Origin: a virus
Taxonomy: Duplodnaviria > Caudoviricetes
Virus record (IMG/VR): IMGVR_UViG_3300017585_000267
Location: 32,001-96,000 of that record
Length of the DNA: 64,000 nt
Strand: one strand, 5' to 3'
Positions within the stretch are counted from its first letter, which is position 1; every line of letters starts with the position of its first letter. Below are positions 583-32,017 of this stretch, piece by piece. The notes below the pieces were generated by a model, which ran no database searches, had not been told where the DNA came from, and was given only the letters and a program-made list of their open reading frames with translations. Made by a program: the position numbers and the translations under genes.

Positions 583-1287
583 TTAATCAATTTCATTGTA
601 CCATTCAATCTCAGTCCCGAACCTCTTCCTCACATGGTCGTTTATGGCGGGCCACAGGTCAGGCGGGAACTTGAAGTCAGCCCTTGTACATGCGGCGGGA
701 TGTACGGTCAGGAAGCAATTGACCCGAAAGTCGATATACCTCTCGAATGACTGCGCGTCCTTACCCATCAGTACGCAGGCGATGTCTGGATTGTTTTGGG
801 ATGTCCTGAGGAGCAGTGAGCTTATGAATGGCCTCCACAGCAGGCAGTGCGAACCAGGTCTGCCTGTCCTGCAAGTCAGGGCCGAATTAAGCATCAACAC
901 CCCCTGTCTCTCCCATGTCTCCAAACTAGGGTCAAAGATAGTCAAATTGTGCGGCCTTGAGAAATCTATTACGGACTCCCTAAGCACCCTTAATGACGGG
1001 GATAACCTCCCTCCCGGGTCTATGCCTCCCGAGGCTGGATTGTACCTTATGGGAGGCAGCCTGTTGCCAAAGGCTATCCCAGTGGCGACGCCCCTTTGCG
1101 GATAGGGGTCCTGGCCGAGGATGATGACCTTGAGCCTTTCGTATGGACACAGCCTGAAAGCCTCAAAGATGTTCCCATAGGAAGGGCAGATGTCGTTGGC
1201 CATGGGGGCGAGCGACCTGAGGATTTTGGTGGCCTCCCCGATGTCCAGGACAGCAGCCCATCCCCCGAAGTATTCCCTGGCCGTCAT
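583..1287 (-). CDS. ung: uracil-DNA glycosylase (family 1)
   Basis: KVIILGQDPYP, SPSL, WERQGVLMLNSALT and HPA motifs. Confidence 0.95.
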   Translation of the reverse strand: MTAREYFGGWAAVLDIGEATKILRSLAPMANDICPSYGNIFEAFRLCPYERLKVIILGQDPYPQRGVATGIAFGNRLPPIRYNPASGGIDPGGRLSPSLRVLRESVIDFSRPHNLTIFDPSLETWERQGVLMLNSALTCRTGRPGSHCLLWRPFISSLLLRTSQNNPDIACVLMGKDAQSFERYIDFRVNCFLTVHPAACTRADFKFPPDLWPAINDHVRKRFGTEIEWYNEID

Positions 1288-2072
1288 TACAGTTCCCCTA
1301 TATATTGAAGGGCGACGTTCCGCAGGGACTCGTCGGTGGTATGCAAGGTAGGCTCCTCGACGCCCCTGATGGCAAAGGGACAGTCCTCGATGATTATCTG
1401 TATGGGAATGTGCCTATAGCTGTACACAAAGGCTTCCGAGCGGACATGAGGCATCACGATTTCGGCCTCCAGGGAAGCCTCGACCAGCCCCTTGCCGCAA
1501 TAGGCCTGTATGATGTCCTTCCTTTCCAGGAAGACCGAGGGAGCTATCCGCATCACGGGCCTCACGAACTGGTAGGTGAAGTCACCATTGCCGGGCTTCC
1601 ATGCCCTGTGGAGCCTCCAGGAACAGATCATGAGGGGCTTCATGTCCCTGTCCAGGAGTATCCCGGAGCTGCCGTAGTACAGGAAGTCCTTGCCTGGAAT
1701 CGCGACCTTCACCAGCCTGTCAAGGGGGAAGCCCTCGTTGAAGAGTGTCCTGAAGATTGGGTCCGCCGTCTTGTTGGTGACCTCATACCCATTGCAATAC
1801 AAGGAGACGACAAGAGTGTCCGTCTTCCTGCCATGAAGGTCAGGGTGAAGGATGAGCAGTCTGTTGTCGGACAACGCCGTTATGGCATTCCCCATGACAA
1901 ACAGCGGAACCTCGATGTCATCCCCGTCTATCGGGACTTCAAGGAACCTTCGGAACTGGGCGTTGCCGTCAACTATGTCGACAGGATTGGCCACTACGCC
2001 GGGATGCCTCCCATAGATGCTGCCATCTGTCCTCGCGAAGGCGTCCTTTATAACTACAGCGGTGTTCATCAT
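1287..2072 (-). CDS. conserved crAss-like hypothetical protein, last gene of the Ubl/E2/JAB/E1 cluster
   Basis: 261-aa ORF overlapping the E1 stop and abutting the ung start. Confidence 0.75.
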   Translation of the reverse strand: MMNTAVVIKDAFARTDGSIYGRHPGVVANPVDIVDGNAQFRRFLEVPIDGDDIEVPLFVMGNAITALSDNRLLILHPDLHGRKTDTLVVSLYCNGYEVTNKTADPIFRTLFNEGFPLDRLVKVAIPGKDFLYYGSSGILLDRDMKPLMICSWRLHRAWKPGNGDFTYQFVRPVMRIAPSVFLERKDIIQAYCGKGLVEASLEAEIVMPHVRSEAFVYSYRHIPIQIIIEDCPFAIRGVEEPTLHTTDESLRNVALQYIGEL

Positions 2073-3343
2073 GCGGTCGTCTTGAATATCATGTTGTGCG
2101 CGTCATACTCCGTGAAGAACGGGAAGTCATAGGGAATGGCCGGGGCGAGCTGGTTGGCAATGAAGTTGGTGAAGAGGTTGGTGATCACCGAGCCTATCAT
2201 GCAGGCCAGGTAGGTGGTCTGCTTCAGGGAGCACACGGTCTCGTCGGCCTCACCGTCTGAGAACAGGTAGTCCCTGTCATACCTCTCCATGCTGTAGTCG
2301 TCGTCACCGGCAATTGCGAACACCTGCAAGGTATCGATGCTCAGCCTTCCGTCTATATACAGGCACTTACGCCTTTCGTCAGGTGTCTTTCCCCGAAGGT
2401 GGTCCCTCCACTTGGCGAAGAACAGCTTCCTTGCGGACATGTTGTCGAAGCCGCAGATCATGATGTCGCTGGCCTCGTCAGTCTCCTGGAACTTTCGGTC
2501 TATCCCAAAGGCGTTGGTCATGTTGGTGTACTTCTTTATCATCTGCACCATGGCCGTCACCTTGGTCTTCCCCACGTCGTCCCTGCTGAACAGTTGCCCG
2601 GACATGTTGGAGGCTTCCACAATGTCGTCATCGTACAGGAACATGCCAGCGGGGGTCATCCTGGCAATCTGGAACACGGCGTTCGAGCCTATGCCCCCTA
2701 TGCCCGCCACTATGACCACGGACTTTCGGATGCTGTCATACCATTCGGCGCCTGAGAACCTCGACGTGGAGTCATCCAGGAGAAGGGTCGGGGAATTCGG
2801 GACTATCATGCCGGTGGAGTCGTAGGGTTCGCCCCTAGGCTGCTCGGCCCTCGACTCCTCCACGTGCTCGACCACCACGCTCAGTGGCGGCGTTACTGGG
2901 GAATCCTCTCCAAGATGCCTGTCATAGTCATCCCTTGGGGAATTCTCCACAATCCTGGTGACCCCCTCGGGAATCGGCGGTTCCTCTTCCGTCTCTCGGC
3001 CTTCCGTCTCAGCGAGGAGCTGGTCAACGCGTCTGACGATATCGTCCTCCAGGGCTTCGTCAGTCTCATGGGATTCCTCGGCAATGTTCTCCTGTTCCTC
3101 AGGGGGAACCATGGCCTGAGATTCATCGTTATCCACTGCCTGCTCAATCGCGACATATGTGGTATTTGGTCTATCCAGGGCCTCCCTTATGGCGTTCAGG
3201 TCAGTCGTTATCCTGAAAGGATATTCAGGTTCGTCCTGACGACGTTCCCCCTCGGGTTCGGCTGGGGTGAAGTCCATGGGATCCAAACCAGCCGAGGCGA
3301 GTATTTCATTCAGTTCTGTGTTGTCCATGTTCAATAGATCCAT
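2069..3343 (-). CDS. ThiF/E1-like adenylyltransferase with long acidic N-terminal extension
   Basis: SRF...VAGIGGIGS, YDDDIVEASNMSGQLF, DVGKTKV, CGFDNMSAR, YIDGR motifs; candidate catalytic Cys in ETVCSLKQT; start could be 3328. Confidence 0.9.
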   Translation of the reverse strand: MDLLNMDNTELNEILASAGLDPMDFTPAEPEGERRQDEPEYPFRITTDLNAIREALDRPNTTYVAIEQAVDNDESQAMVPPEEQENIAEESHETDEALEDDIVRRVDQLLAETEGRETEEEPPIPEGVTRIVENSPRDDYDRHLGEDSPVTPPLSVVVEHVEESRAEQPRGEPYDSTGMIVPNSPTLLLDDSTSRFSGAEWYDSIRKSVVIVAGIGGIGSNAVFQIARMTPAGMFLYDDDIVEASNMSGQLFSRDDVGKTKVTAMVQMIKKYTNMTNAFGIDRKFQETDEASDIMICGFDNMSARKLFFAKWRDHLRGKTPDERRKCLYIDGRLSIDTLQVFAIAGDDDYSMERYDRDYLFSDGEADETVCSLKQTTYLACMIGSVITNLFTNFIANQLAPAIPYDFPFFTEYDAHNMIFKTTA

Positions 3344-4506
3344 CTTTCAAGTTCATTGATGTACGCGGTGAGGTACGGGTTGTCATGGAGCGGATCCACG
3401 AAGGTCTTGAGCTCCTCCTGCATGGCCATGGCCTTCACCGACCAATAGGAGTCGTCGTCAAGCATCGGGTACATGTCACGGAAGGAATCGTCCTTGCCAT
3501 ACATGAGGCTGTACTCGACGGAGTAGTCCCTCCAGCTTGTGAAGGCATCCATGTCCACGCCCCCGAACTGCTTGTCATAGACGGGGACCATGTATTTGTC
3601 GACCCACTCCTTGAGGTTCGACTTGCCGCCGTGCATGATGAGGGAACAGGTGAGCATCCTGAGCACGAGCTCCCGTATGGACTCGTCCCCCACCATGTAG
3701 CTGGACCGCAAGTTAGCCACGTCGTTCTGGACGACGCCCTCAAGCTCCCTCTCGGAGAACAGTCCGGGCTCAGCCTTTTGGGGCTGCCAGGCATCGGAGA
3801 TTCCGGGAGACAACGTGACGGCAGAGGCCTTCTTCCTTTTCTCGATTTCCTCGAACCTCCTGTCCATGTCGTCGAAGGGATTGGCCACCGCAGGCTTCTC
3901 GATGTCGAGCATGAAGTACTCGACCTTGCTGCACACGTCTTCCTTCCTGACTTCCTTGCGGTCGTCGCCCGACTTGACTTCTCCCTCACCAAAGAACTGG
4001 TAGGTGCTCTCAAGGCAGGTCACGGTGATTTCCCTCTTGATCCTGACGTTCCTCGTTATGGCCGCGACGTAGTTTCCCGCATTGTCGACTATCAGGGAGA
4101 CGAAGTTGTTGGTGTCGTTGCCTTCAACTTGCAGCGTGTTGATGTCCTGGCCGCTGAAGAACGCACCGAGCCTGTGATGGGAATGTATCAGCCCGATCTC
4201 ACAGTCGAACAGTTCCATGTTTTGGGCCATGTATGCGGCCACGTCCTCGTTCATGTGGTATTCGGTCCATCCCGAAGTCCCGAGGTCCATGGGATAGAAG
4301 TCCTCGCACCTGATTACGAGATCGCCTCCCTCGAAAGAGCCCGTGTGGTGATAGAACAGCACCCCGGACCACTCGGTGCTGGGGAACTTCCTCTGCAAGT
4401 ACCTTATCTTGGATTCCACCGGCTCGGGAATCACCATCCTATACGTGGAGGACATTTTGACTGGCGCAGGGGAGTTCCCCGCCTGTAGTTGCTTGGTTTC
4501 TTTCAT
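3331..4506 (-). CDS. JAB/MPN+ (JAMM) metallopeptidase
   Basis: EWSG...IHSHHRLGAFFSGQD fits E...HxH-x7-S-x2-D; start placed at MKETKQ. Confidence 0.9.
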   Translation of the reverse strand: MKETKQLQAGNSPAPVKMSSTYRMVIPEPVESKIRYLQRKFPSTEWSGVLFYHHTGSFEGGDLVIRCEDFYPMDLGTSGWTEYHMNEDVAAYMAQNMELFDCEIGLIHSHHRLGAFFSGQDINTLQVEGNDTNNFVSLIVDNAGNYVAAITRNVRIKREITVTCLESTYQFFGEGEVKSGDDRKEVRKEDVCSKVEYFMLDIEKPAVANPFDDMDRRFEEIEKRKKASAVTLSPGISDAWQPQKAEPGLFSERELEGVVQNDVANLRSSYMVGDESIRELVLRMLTCSLIMHGGKSNLKEWVDKYMVPVYDKQFGGVDMDAFTSWRDYSVEYSLMYGKDDSFRDMYPMLDDDSYWSVKAMAMQEELKTFVDPLHDNPYLTAYINELERWIY

Positions 4507-5641
4507 TTTTGAATCTATAGTTAACCGTACGAAGTATCCTGTTGAGCAGGGGCATGGCGAACAGATGGTGCAGCAGCACGGTTGGAGCCTCCCTGCTCGA
4601 CCCGTCGTCATAGATGGAGAGGTTCACGTCCCGCCCCTTGAAAGTAAGCACATAGGCACCCTCATATTCACTGGGGATGCAGGTAGAGAAGCCCCGTGAA
4701 TAGAACCTCCTGTCCCGCACGATGGCCTTCACCAGTATCCTCAGATTGAAGCAATACCTGGCTGCGGTCTTACAGCCATCCACGAGACGATTGTTCACAT
4801 AATCTATGAAGCAATTCGAGATGTCCATCATGAAGTCATAGTACTGCATCCCTACGGAGAACGAGTTGTTGCAATAGTTGAACTTGAGATGCCCGTTGGT
4901 AAGGTAGTACCTGATGAAGTCCTGAAGCGCAGCCTTCCCGAACTTTTCGTTGAAGTGCCCTATCAGGGAATTCGAGAACAGGGAGTCGTCATACTCGTTT
5001 TCTATGAGGTATCCCTTGTTGCCGATCTCCTCGAGCCTCCTGTAGGGGACCCCTGTAAGGGACTCTACTGTCACGTACATGGAGAGCTCCTGGCAGAACA
5101 GCATCCACTCCGTCTCGTCGAACTCATTCTTGAGGGAGTTGATGGTCCCGACTATGGGACCCCTCCCGAGGCACGGGCTGTCGAAACGTGAGAAGTCCTG
5201 CTTGTTGATTCCCCTGAGGTGGCTATGGGAGTAGTCGCTGAGGAACTGCGTCATGGAATACCTGGCCCTGTTGAGGTAGAAGCCGTGGCTGCTGGGAGGG
5301 ATCTTCCCGTCAAGGCCCACCCTGACCAGCGCATAGAGGTCGTCGATGACAACGGATCTGTCGTTCTCGTTGGTCACGGTGACATGCGGCCAGTAGACAT
5401 AGATGGAGCAGTACAGCCTGGCGGCGCCTTCTATCACCTTCCCGATCCTATGGTCCGAGATGTCAATGGTAGCGTCGGGAAGCTGTCCCGCATCCCATGC
5501 ACAGCCTATATAGCGTTCCATCCGGGAGCTTTGCAGGTCGACGAACTGTTCCCCGAAGAAGTCCTGGAATACCCTGTATACCGCAGCTACCTTGAAGAAA
5601 ACCCTGTCATGGAATTGTTCTTTTGTCATTAGCATAGGCAA
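4439..5641 (-). CDS. putative prokaryotic E2-like (ubiquitin-conjugating fold) protein
   Basis: YSHSHL...FDSPCLGRGPI resembles the E2 HPN...CL active-site spacing; lies between the Ubl and JAB genes. Confidence 0.55.
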   Translation of the reverse strand: MPMLMTKEQFHDRVFFKVAAVYRVFQDFFGEQFVDLQSSRMERYIGCAWDAGQLPDATIDISDHRIGKVIEGAARLYCSIYVYWPHVTVTNENDRSVVIDDLYALVRVGLDGKIPPSSHGFYLNRARYSMTQFLSDYSHSHLRGINKQDFSRFDSPCLGRGPIVGTINSLKNEFDETEWMLFCQELSMYVTVESLTGVPYRRLEEIGNKGYLIENEYDDSLFSNSLIGHFNEKFGKAALQDFIRYYLTNGHLKFNYCNNSFSVGMQYYDFMMDISNCFIDYVNNRLVDGCKTAARYCFNLRILVKAIVRDRRFYSRGFSTCIPSEYEGAYVLTFKGRDVNLSIYDDGSSREAPTVLLHHLFAMPLLNRILRTVNYRFKNERNQATTGGELPCASQNVLHV

Positions 5642-5653
5642 TGGACTTTTGGT

Positions 5654-5696
5654 AAAATAAAATAAAGGGAGCGAATGGTCATCCCACCCGCTCCCC
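5654..5696 (-). terminator. intrinsic terminator between the Ubl and E2-like genes
   Basis: GGGAGCG...CGCTCCC stem followed by TTTATTTTATTTT on the minus strand. Confidence 0.7.
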
Positions 5697-5722
5697 TGGC
5701 ATTGAGTAAAACAGGACAGCCC

Positions 5723-6394
5723 CTACAGGTTGGCCTCGATTATGTCATCAATCTCCTTTGAAGAGAACGGCGCATCCGCAAGGTTCTGGTTGTCCTTGAC
5801 GCTCGCGAGTTTCCCTACCATCTCACCGAGCTTGGCGAGATCCTGGACATTGAGCAGGTCGGCTTCCACCGCAAGCCTCACTACGTTGAAGAGGTTGTCA
5901 CGAAGCTCCTCGGACTCCTTGGACTTGGGTTCCTCCTCGTTGTCTATGTCACAGTCCGTGCCCTCATCTTCGTCATCGTCATCGACATAGCCGTTGTCAC
6001 AGAGGAAGGTCTCGAGGGAATCCGTGGGCACCTGGGTGAAGTTCCGCCCATAGGCCTCCTGGATTCTGTCCTGAAGGCCCTGTTCCTTGATGATGGGATA
6101 GATCTCCGTGAACCTGTCCATGGCTCCCGAAGCGATGTTCTTGTGGGTGTTGGTGAGGAGGAAGACCAGGTTGTTCGTGGTTTGTCCCTTGTAGGGGACG
6201 TTGGCGGGCAGCGGAGAGGCGTCGTCATTGAGGGTGGTCTTGGTTATGCCCTCGGTAAAGGACATCCCGGTATAGTCGATGCCGTTCTCCCTGAAAGCCG
6301 CCTTGAGCTCCCCAAGGGTTGTTGCATTGGTAGTGATTTTGTACCTTTTTTGGTCTTTGGTACTGGCGACCATGATTGTGCGATTTGTTTCCAT
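5723..6394 (-). CDS. ubiquitin-like (beta-grasp) N-terminal domain fused to helical/acidic C-terminal region
   Basis: N-terminal beta-beta-alpha pattern (RTIMV..KRYKITTNATTLGELKAAF), ending LVFLL..KNIASG at residue 90; heads the E2/JAB/E1 cluster. Confidence 0.6.
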   Translation of the reverse strand: METNRTIMVASTKDQKRYKITTNATTLGELKAAFRENGIDYTGMSFTEGITKTTLNDDASPLPANVPYKGQTTNNLVFLLTNTHKNIASGAMDRFTEIYPIIKEQGLQDRIQEAYGRNFTQVPTDSLETFLCDNGYVDDDDEDEGTDCDIDNEEEPKSKESEELRDNLFNVVRLAVEADLLNVQDLAKLGEMVGKLASVKDNQNLADAPFSSKEIDDIIEANL

Positions 6395-21096: not shown

Positions 21097-21191
21097 AAAA
21101 AAATAAGGGAGCGACCCCATAAGGGGCCACTCCCACTGAAAGAAAAAAAACAAGGGACGCAGCCCGCATTGGACTGCATCCCCTGTACTTT

Positions 21192-31657: not shown

Positions 31658-32017
31658 ATGGAAGAGATGAATAAAAACAACGTTCAGGCCGAGCCTGATG
31701 CAAGCGGCAAGAAGCCCACGAAGCTCTACACCGAGGCCGAGGTCAACCAGGCATGCCAGCGGCTCTATCAGAGGCTCCTGGCCCAGATGCAGCGCATGGA
31801 CATGACGAACACCTTCAAGAGACTGGACTACCTGTTCCAGATACTCGACCACAAGGACATGTTCGAGCCCGAGTTCATCGCCGAGTGCGTGTCAGAGCTC
31901 ACCTCCGCCATGAAGGCCGAGGACGAACCCGAGGCTCCCAAGGAAGGCGAGACGGAGGCTTCTGAGGCTGGAGAGGCGGACAATGGAGAGACCCCGAAGT
32001 CCGCTGGGGAGGAATAG
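31658..32017 (+). CDS. conserved hypothetical protein
   Basis: FKRLDYLF motif, acidic tail. Confidence 0.75.
   Translation: MEEMNKNNVQAEPDASGKKPTKLYTEAEVNQACQRLYQRLLAQMQRMDMTNTFKRLDYLFQILDHKDMFEPEFIAECVSELTSAMKAEDEPEAPKEGETEASEAGEADNGETPKSAGEE

Follow-up and report, generated by a model that had tools for sequence, protein, structure and literature searches.

The stretch of DNA considered here, referred to as the window, is 64,000 nucleotides (nt) long and comes from the viral record IMGVR_UViG_3300017585_000267 of IMG/VR (positions 32,001 to 96,000), a 105,238-bp genome of a gut crAss-like phage that is rated 100% complete. In the region that corresponds to the replication module of crAss-like phages lies a group of minus-strand genes that together resemble a ubiquitin-type tagging pathway, with a primase, a helicase, and a uracil-DNA glycosylase (UDG) as neighbors. 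The first of these genes codes for Ubl-X, a ubiquitin-like protein (Ubl) with a long C-terminal extension, and it is followed by genes for an E2-like protein, a JAB metalloprotease, and an E1-like enzyme. A hairpin with the features of an intrinsic terminator separates Ubl-X from the other three. Ubl-X is probably a precursor that the JAB would cut after an internal glycine, Gly90, and the hairpin would keep the modifier in excess of the enzymes. The positions of these features are collected in Table 1.

Table 1. Features of the Ubl-X locus (positions are those of the window)
Feature	Positions	Strand	Basis
Ubl-X precursor gene, 223 amino acids (aa)	5723..6394	-	Open reading frame (ORF) translation; crAss001 Gp79 ortholog; PHROG 15560
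Ubiquitin-like beta-grasp domain and tail, residues 1-90, tail motif K-[NK]-I-x-S-G	6125..6394	-	AlphaFold2 model, fold matches, conservation
Invariant Gly90 codon, proposed JAB cleavage site and future conjugating end	6125..6127	-	Conservation, complex model
Variable linker, residues 91-93, prime side of the proposed cut	6116..6124	-	Mean conservation 0.42, pLDDT <50
Conserved three-helix module, residues 94-133, with invariant R94 and F-G-[RK]-N-[FY]-T; start of the predicted second product	5996..6115	-	AlphaFold2 model, alignment
Acidic, disordered, poorly conserved linker, residues 134-158	5921..5995	-	AlphaFold2 model, conservation
C-terminal helical module, residues 159-223, ending in the conserved S-[DE]-[DE]-I-D-x-M helix	5726..5920	-	AlphaFold2 model, alignment
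Intrinsic-terminator-like element: 14-bp G+C-rich hairpin (5697-5665) and T-tract to 5654	5654..5697	-	Terminator scan, conservation in relatives
E2-like gene, likely start ATG 5635	4439..5641	-	Invariant Y-x-H-S-H ... P-C-x-G-x-G-P motif
JAB/JAMM metalloprotease gene, likely start 4506; longest ORF from 4611	3331..4506	-	Invariant E...HSH...S..D
E1-like ThiF-family adenylating enzyme, acidic N-terminal extension of about 190 aa	2069..3343	-	ThiF match, invariant motifs

With the Ubl-X protein as a tblastn query, 74 phage records are matched, and these belong to the Steigviridae (crAss-like phages of Bacteroides) and to phages of Flavobacterium psychrophilum. Ubl-X itself has no match in Pfam, NCBIfam, or PADLOC, and in PHROGs it falls into an unnamed family. 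In crAss001 the annotated order is primase (Gp80), Gp79 (hypothetical, the Ubl-X ortholog), Gp78 (hypothetical), Gp77 (metalloprotease domain), Gp76 (ThiF), Gp75, and UDG (Gp74), the same order as in the window. The succession of Ubl-X, E2-like gene, JAB, E1, an ORF of about 250 aa, and UDG is constant in 20-21 diverse loci. Only 17 nt lie between the stop codon of the primase and the start of Ubl-X, so Ubl-X would be co-transcribed with the replication genes.

The N-terminal part of Ubl-X has a ubiquitin-like fold. In the AlphaFold2 model, built with 25 homologs, a beta-grasp (two strands, a helix, and further strands) occupies residues 5-82 with a predicted local distance difference test (pLDDT) score of 82-93. 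Foldseek matches the Ubl model against the Protein Data Bank (PDB) with a probability of 1.0 over about 80 columns, the matches being ubiquitin, NEDD8, SUMO, ISG15, and UBX. An independent search with VIA yields matches to DIX, ubiquitin, FAT10, MoaD, and UBX (Z 7-8.8; root-mean-square deviation 2.2-2.8 Å over 70-77 residues), and all of its alignments stop at model residues 81-88. The next few residues (86-92), among them S89-G90, are modeled with low confidence (pLDDT <50). By direct count of codons, residue 90 is a Gly in the context KNIASG|AM, and a further 133 aa follow it up to the end of the protein (...EANL), where there is no terminal Gly. This is the layout described in an earlier annotation of the window, called the sequence-only reading here, in which the Ubl-like domain ended at Gly90 and some 130 residues followed without a C-terminal Gly.

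The conservation of the glycine can be judged from several sets of homologs: 120 close homologs (45-70% identity), representatives of 50%-identity clusters, and 80 IMG/VR viral loci. The representatives come from a profile search of 1.84 billion cluster representatives, which found 1399 relatives, and the best 150 of these were compared together with the query (151 sequences). An alignment of 139 rows has a mean column identity of 25%. Three short homologs of 89-108 aa, possibly cut by contig ends, were excluded as evidence for standalone Ubls. The sequence-only reading had turned on whether the S-G pair is invariant or Gly90 varies among homologs, and Gly90 is invariant throughout. Both residues are present in all 120 close homologs; Gly90 is found in 151 of 151 sequences of the wider comparison and S89 in 143; E48, P63, G90, and R94 are the only invariant columns of the 139-row alignment; and the fused form with its S-G in place is seen in 80 of 80 related viral loci.

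The residues around the glycine add to this picture. Averaged over columns, the most common residue has a frequency of 0.66 in the beta-grasp, 0.73 in the tail (residues 83-90), and only 0.42 in residues 91-93. The spacing from Gly90 to R94 varies from 2 to 7 aa, the position directly after the Gly (P1') is filled by 14 different residues across the representatives, and the part beyond the Gly measures 103-186 aa in relatives. Conservation up to the Gly and freedom directly after it is, at the level of sequence, the pattern expected of a processing site that is recognized on its non-prime side.

Only 20 of 151 representatives have a Gly as their last or next-to-last residue, so the true C-terminus of Ubl-X cannot be the conjugating end of the family; a C-terminal Gly in that role was rejected as a family feature. 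Gly90 is the only conserved candidate end in the alignments, and since 133 aa follow it, a free Gly90 end would require proteolysis. An internal start at Met92, another conceivable source of a second product, is unsupported as a general mechanism; Met is no more than the most frequent residue in that column (48 of 151). Some lineages do end in a Gly motif: 61 of the 120 close homologs end in LGV (a large sub-lineage ends L-G-[VMIL]), and the protein of the Flavobacterium phage FpV4 ends ...MFG; the window protein has neither ending. The C-terminal product may have a second Gly-based processing or conjugation end in those lineages.

The JAB gene next door codes for a plausible protease for this site. 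Residues E45, H108, S109, H110, S118, and D121 are invariant in 21 orthologs and make up the JAMM motif (E ... H-x-H ... S-x-x-D), and the ORF scores 24.4 bits against Pfam Prok-JAB, for which the gathering cut-off is 25. A complex of JAB residues 1-215 with Ubl-X residues 1-135, each given as an alignment, was predicted in three runs with three controls. The median complex score is 0.74 (0.72, 0.77, and 0.74), compared to 0.00 for the best control; in the calibration of the score, the mark was reached by 58 of 80 solved complexes and by 2 of 110 mismatched pairs. At least 80% of contacts are common to the runs, and the pLDDT of the partner is 81-84. The confidently modeled interface sets JAB residues 45, 47, 108, 110, 118, and 120-121, which include all five catalytic residues, against Ubl-X residues 81-92 and the beta-grasp surface. 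The model supports, rather than shows, binding of the Ubl-X tail by the JAB.

A natural experiment on the fusion is found in crAssphage cr106_1 (NC_055871), in which the Ubl-X gene is split by a free-standing HNH endonuclease gene two codons past the invariant Gly. The first piece is a 92-aa ORF that ends ...KKIKSG-KF-stop, and the HNH gene begins 1 base on, in another frame. The second piece, a 130-aa ORF found 15 bases past the HNH gene, aligns with the C-terminal half and starts six residues before the counterpart of R94. A group I intron was rejected as the cause: Rfam yields nothing at E<=1, and the non-coding sequence on the two sides of the HNH ORF amounts to just 1 nt and 15 nt. An intein is excluded, the HNH gene being in another frame and behind a stop codon. 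The HNH protein is one of a mobile family, with matches in 1065 phage records, and is encoded at different positions in other crAss-like phages. A homing endonuclease has thus split the cr106_1 gene, with both halves remaining open, which shows that the halves need not be joined. Of course, genes split by homing endonucleases can survive simply through the independence of their domains. The split, the only one among the 74 phage records and 80 viral loci, is compatible with cleavage of the fused forms and is not proof of it.

The C-terminal half would be the second product of the cut. AlphaFold2 places a three-helix module at residues 91-133 (pLDDT about 84), a disordered acidic stretch at 140-158, and further helices after that. 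Residues 94-133 follow the pattern R-x-x-x-Y ... L-Q ... F-G-[RK]-N-[FY]-T-x-V-x-T-x-x-L, and the median net charge is -13 after the Gly compared to 0 for the Ubl part. No usable match was found in the ESM Atlas, and a Pfam scan of 139 members gave only scattered weak families, too weak to use. In a PDB sequence-profile search, residues 159-223 resemble calmodulin EF-hand helix pairs over ...S-D-E-E-I-D-x-M at a sub-threshold level (E about 0.1-1) that allows no interpretation. For residues 94-133, a SAP/HeH-like reading based on the sequence pattern alone was likewise set aside as too weak. The position beside the primase and UDG genes only hints at a role for the second product in replication or repair.

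Candidates for the other two enzymes of a conjugation pathway lie in the same cluster. The E1-like protein scores 60.7 bits against Pfam ThiF (cut-off 28.1) and keeps GxGGIG, R228, D238, D240, D300, R305, and C371 invariant. Its residues 1-190 form a strongly acidic extension that looks poorly ordered, and its orthologs range from 246 to 441 aa. In 22 orthologs of the E2-like protein, Y137, H139, S140, and H141 are invariant, as are, sixteen residues on, C157, G159, G161, and P162. Its model (pLDDT 84) consists of a helix, three long strands, a loop that bears the motif, and two helices. Foldseek finds no significant match for this model, and a PDB sequence-profile search finds none. When VIA was run against 48,161 chains, E2, UEV, or RWD folds (Z 4-6) made up more than half of the top 50 rows, with BubB and Cap2 of the cyclic oligonucleotide-based antiphage signaling system (CBASS) among them. 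The E2-like protein probably has a UBC-type fold, judging from the model.

The sequence-only reading had also placed an intrinsic terminator between the Ubl-like gene and the E2-like, JAB, and E1 genes, and a hairpin with a T-tract is indeed found there. The stem has 14 pairs, 8 of them G-C, with a 5-nt loop, and begins 26 nt past the Ubl-X stop codon. It is the best terminator-like site in the first 14 kb of the window, and only 15 sites this strong exist on both strands of the whole 64 kb. Of 59 distinct regions downstream of the gene, 58 have a hairpin of -15 to -25 kcal/mol that closes only a few bases away from a T-rich octamer. Because the stem sequences show no relationship from one lineage to the next, conservation here concerns structure and position, not sequence. 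The coding strand of 54 distinct loci (666 kb) holds 62 such sites, 53 of which fall within 250 nt past the stop codon of this gene and 9 elsewhere within ±6 kb. For example, the hairpin of crAss001 reaches -28.4 kcal/mol (z -6.3) and is followed by U9, that of FpV4 has a 14-bp stem and U7, and that of cr106_1 stands after the ORF for the C-terminal half.

The hairpin sets Ubl-X alone apart from the mutually overlapping E2-like, JAB, E1, 261-aa, and UDG ORFs. From the T-tract to the likely ATG of the E2-like gene there are 18 nt in the window and about 7-18 nt in crAss001, FpV4, and cr106_1, and the hairpin element as a whole stands only about 10-25 nt from the next start codon. A promoter and leader could not fit into this gap, and expression of the enzyme genes would therefore depend on transcripts that pass through the hairpin. 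Such a placement fits a design in which the modifier is in excess, and position and conservation together point to partial termination. Elsewhere in the window, very strong hairpins with T-tracts (-22 to -25 kcal/mol) cluster at about 21.1-21.7 kb, at 21107, 21154, and 21702 on the minus strand and at 21186 on the plus strand. Those at 21154 and 21186 are the two strands of one palindrome, which could act in both directions.

These observations can be joined into one mechanism. Ubl-X would be a precursor in which residues 1-90 are a ubiquitin-like modifier and residues 91-223 a strongly acidic, helical second protein. The neighboring JAB would bind the beta-grasp and its tail and cut after Gly90, freeing the C-terminal half and exposing the Gly90 carboxylate. 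The ThiF-type E1 would then adenylate this carboxylate and pass it to the conserved Cys of the E2-like protein for conjugation. At the level of RNA, Ubl-X would be transcribed together with the upstream replication genes, and the hairpin and U-tract would end or stabilize most transcripts at that point. The overlapping E2-like, JAB, and E1 genes would be reached by read-through only, and the modifier, which is consumed, would outnumber the catalysts. We give this full reading, with JAB cleavage at Gly90, use of the new end by E1 and E2, and a read-through terminator that favors the modifier, a probability of about 0.6. It is supported in that a Ubl pro-protein, a JAB cut, and a terminator agree with every computational test run, which is not biochemical proof.

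Several points weigh against this reading. Residues 94-131 are conserved almost like the Ubl itself and R94 is invariant; therefore, the two halves could work as one protein. The E2 assignment comes from middling Z scores in VIA and nothing significant in Foldseek. None of the Ubl, the E2-like protein, and the JAB matches a Bil or CBASS profile of PADLOC at E<=0.01, and the E1 reaches 28.6 bits with BilD, on par with its weak matches to Cap2 E1-E2 models; by these profiles, the cassette is a lineage separate from the known defense systems Bil and CBASS. Likeness to solved ubiquitin-JAMM complexes may raise the score of the complex model. Some relatives, including crAss001, have a perfect U9 after a very strong stem, which looks like an efficient terminator and not a leaky one. 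Attenuation would also presume that the polymerase of this module responds to intrinsic terminators.

The alternative that survives best concerns the hairpin, which could be a full terminator of the replication operon, with a phage-specific promoter for the enzyme genes, or an element for the stability or processing of the 3' end. The very strong stems and the perfect U8-U9 tracts of several relatives would suit a full terminator, as would the lack of any other strong site within ±6 kb in nearly all relatives, which is what an operon boundary should look like. The scan for sigma-70 promoters does not cover the promoters of crAss-like phage polymerases. However, the gap between T-tract and start codon is short in the window, crAss001, FpV4, and cr106_1, and a promoter could find space only by overlapping the hairpin or by lying upstream, in which case its transcripts would run into the same terminator. 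The region shows no evident conserved sequence motif, given that the stems differ between lineages. We regard this explanation as unlikely, though it deserves to be taken seriously.

The fusion could also be one that is never cut. The beta-grasp would in that case be a permanent docking domain, similar to UBL-domain or UBX-like proteins, that tethers the acidic half to the JAB, E1, and E2, and the E1 and E2 would act on some other carboxyl end, as Cap2 of CBASS does on the cyclase. The fused form is the rule, and the strong conservation of residues 94-131 and R94 lies right beside the junction. The L-G-[VMIL] ends of some sub-lineages, and the ...FG end of FpV4, would be consistent with a carboxyl end other than Gly90. 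Still, the true C-terminus is not conserved, and in the window protein it is a predicted helix; the cr106_1 split shows the covalent linkage to be dispensable; and an invariant Gly on a disordered tail, modeled at the zinc site of the JAMM, has no obvious role in an uncut adaptor. The complete 105-kb genome also offers no second modifier candidate; Ubl-X occurs once in it, and no further match to ThiS or ubiquitin was found there. A permanently joined protein is improbable, and a precursor cut at Gly90 remains the preferred reading.

Very improbable is a Ubl that the JAB does release at Gly90 and that is no protein tag, either a removable N-terminal folding or solubility domain or a carrier of the ThiS/MoaD type, with adenylation of Gly90 serving acyl or sulfur chemistry (CysO-Mec+, PdtH). 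The best sequence matches of the E1 are ThiF and MoeB enzymes, the E2 assignment is only moderately supported, and ThiS-JAB-E1 operons without protein conjugation are known (PMC1779556); yet the E2-like protein is present in 22 of 22 aligned cassettes, its invariant His and Cys lie in a loop that is positioned like the one in UBC folds, its VIA matches are dominated by E2, UEV, and RWD folds, the neighbors are a primase, a helicase, and a UDG with no sulfur-transfer or cofactor genes nearby, and no rhodanese match is found in the E1 ORF or in any other scanned ORF of the cassette.

The genes 3' of the hairpin (583-5641, minus strand) overlap one after another. Between the end of the E2-like ORF and the longest JAB ORF, 68-172 nt are shared, according to which start is taken, and the overlaps are 13 nt between JAB and E1, 4 nt between E1 and the 261-aa ORF, and 1 nt between the 261-aa ORF and UDG. 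This chain suggests translational coupling of everything downstream of the hairpin. The 261-aa ORF (1287-2072, minus strand) sits between E1 and UDG, a position that is kept in nearly all relatives, and has no family match in Pfam, PHROG, PADLOC, or NCBIfam; its product may be an adaptor of the system or one of its substrates. The same cassette is carried by FpV4 (KT876724), a Fipvunavirus outside the Crassvirales. There, a 289-aa Ubl-X with ...KSG|G is followed by the hairpin and U7, two proteins of about 420 aa, and a ThiF protein, and UDG lies upstream of Ubl-X instead of downstream.

The role that such a cassette could play for a phage is open to a wider proposal, one that is tentative and to which we would give somewhat less than even odds. 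Steigviridae crAss-like phages and some Flavobacterium phages would run a complete Ubl conjugation pathway of their own, for the benefit of the phage and not for the defense of the host. The modifier would be made from a "ubiquitin-fusion gene" together with an acidic protein of the replication module, the JAB would free both in a 1:1 ratio, and the phage E1 and E2 would attach the Ubl to replisome, repair, or host proteins. The conserved read-through terminator would set the ratio of modifier to enzymes.

To our knowledge, the only prokaryotic setting in which Ubl conjugation has been demonstrated to date is that of bacterial systems directed against phages (Bil, Bub, and CBASS). Here, the same toolkit is found in lytic phages of one of the most abundant viral groups of the human gut, within the replication module, and it has been kept across many lineages and two host genera. 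This points to a complete, undescribed, phage-owned tagging system. The same genes are present in crAss001 (Gp79 to Gp76), a phage that can be cultivated, which opens the proposed cleavage, the conjugation targets, and the function of the terminator to direct tests. A search of the literature on crAss-like phages, crAss001, Crassvirales, and crAssphage in combination with ThiF, JAB, or ubiquitin found no description of the cassette, and a 2023 review of the Crassvirales does not mention it. The papers that were searched also yielded no transcript data for the locus.

Each part of the proposed system has counterparts elsewhere. Intrinsic terminators inside operons are known to set gene ratios, as in the rplL-rpoB attenuator and T-phi after gene 10 of T7. 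In these cases, too, a hairpin and U-tract stand between an abundant product and genes reached by read-through; partial termination was measured there, whereas here it is predicted from position and conservation. In eukaryotes, ubiquitin is made from fusion precursors (UBA52, RPS27A, and polyubiquitin), in which the modifier is fused to a functional protein and a deubiquitinase cuts after the terminal Gly to give 1:1 products. The fused precursor of the phages would be the parallel of these genes in a prokaryotic virus, and it offers a defined candidate cleavage site and a built-in second product. The eukaryotic fusions differ in having ribosomal proteins as partners and mostly cysteine-protease deubiquitinases, while the partner in Ubl-X is an acidic helical protein. 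Type II CBASS also combines E1/E2-type activity (Cap2) with a JAB (Cap3) that trims or reverses conjugation, and the Cap2 likenesses of the phage proteins, in the weak profile matches of the E1 and in the E2-model search, are in line with this. CBASS, however, has no Ubl and conjugates the C-terminus of a cyclase in place of a beta-grasp protein, and its E1 and E2 are fused.

The closest comparisons for the cleavage itself are with phage lambda and with Bil. In lambda, the TAPK JAB was predicted to release the Ubl of the fused TAPI protein at its last Gly (Iyer et al. 2006; PMC1779556). The TAPI systems of lambda and T1 thus share with Ubl-X a phage Ubl, a flexible linker, a small C-terminal domain, and an adjoining JAB peptidase gene. 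They have no E1 or E2, serve tail assembly, and carry a Gly-rich linker, whereas the cassette lies among replication genes and has a single invariant S-G followed by a helical module. In Bil (BilABCD), cleavage of BilA at Gly97|Ala98 is carried out by the JAB protein BilC, which accepts a BilA-GFP fusion as a substrate as well (bioRxiv 10.1101/2023.09.26.559546). Bil likewise has separate genes for Ubl, E2, JAB, and E1 and a JAB that processes the Ubl beforehand to expose a Gly, a step that in the phage cassette is a prediction. The Ubl of cr106_1, with its two-residue overhang after the Gly, ends in the same manner as BilA before trimming by BilC. Such short overhangs are frequent among BilA homologs, 12 of which have 2-9 aa past the Gly. 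In some Ubls of Bil and Bub, an E2 domain is fused to the C-terminus.

The cassette also differs from Bil. The phage extension is 133 aa long, conserved, and folded, compared to 1-9 residues in BilA. The cassette sits in the replication module of a lytic phage, whereas Bil sits in a bacterial defense island and acts against phages. The Ubl, the E2-like protein, and the JAB match none of the BilA, BilB, and BilC profiles, the match of the E1 to BilD (28.6 bits) is weak, and the E2-like protein of the phage, at 400 aa, has an extra C-terminal domain. The mechanism, release of a Ubl from a precursor by a JAB, would thus be of a kind already known from BilA/BilC and predicted for TAPI. What appears to be new is the carrier, a lytic crAss-like phage whose replication module contains E1, E2, and JAB genes as a complete set, along with a long, conserved, folded extension that is predicted to be a second product, a natural split form, and a conserved terminator between the modifier and its enzymes.

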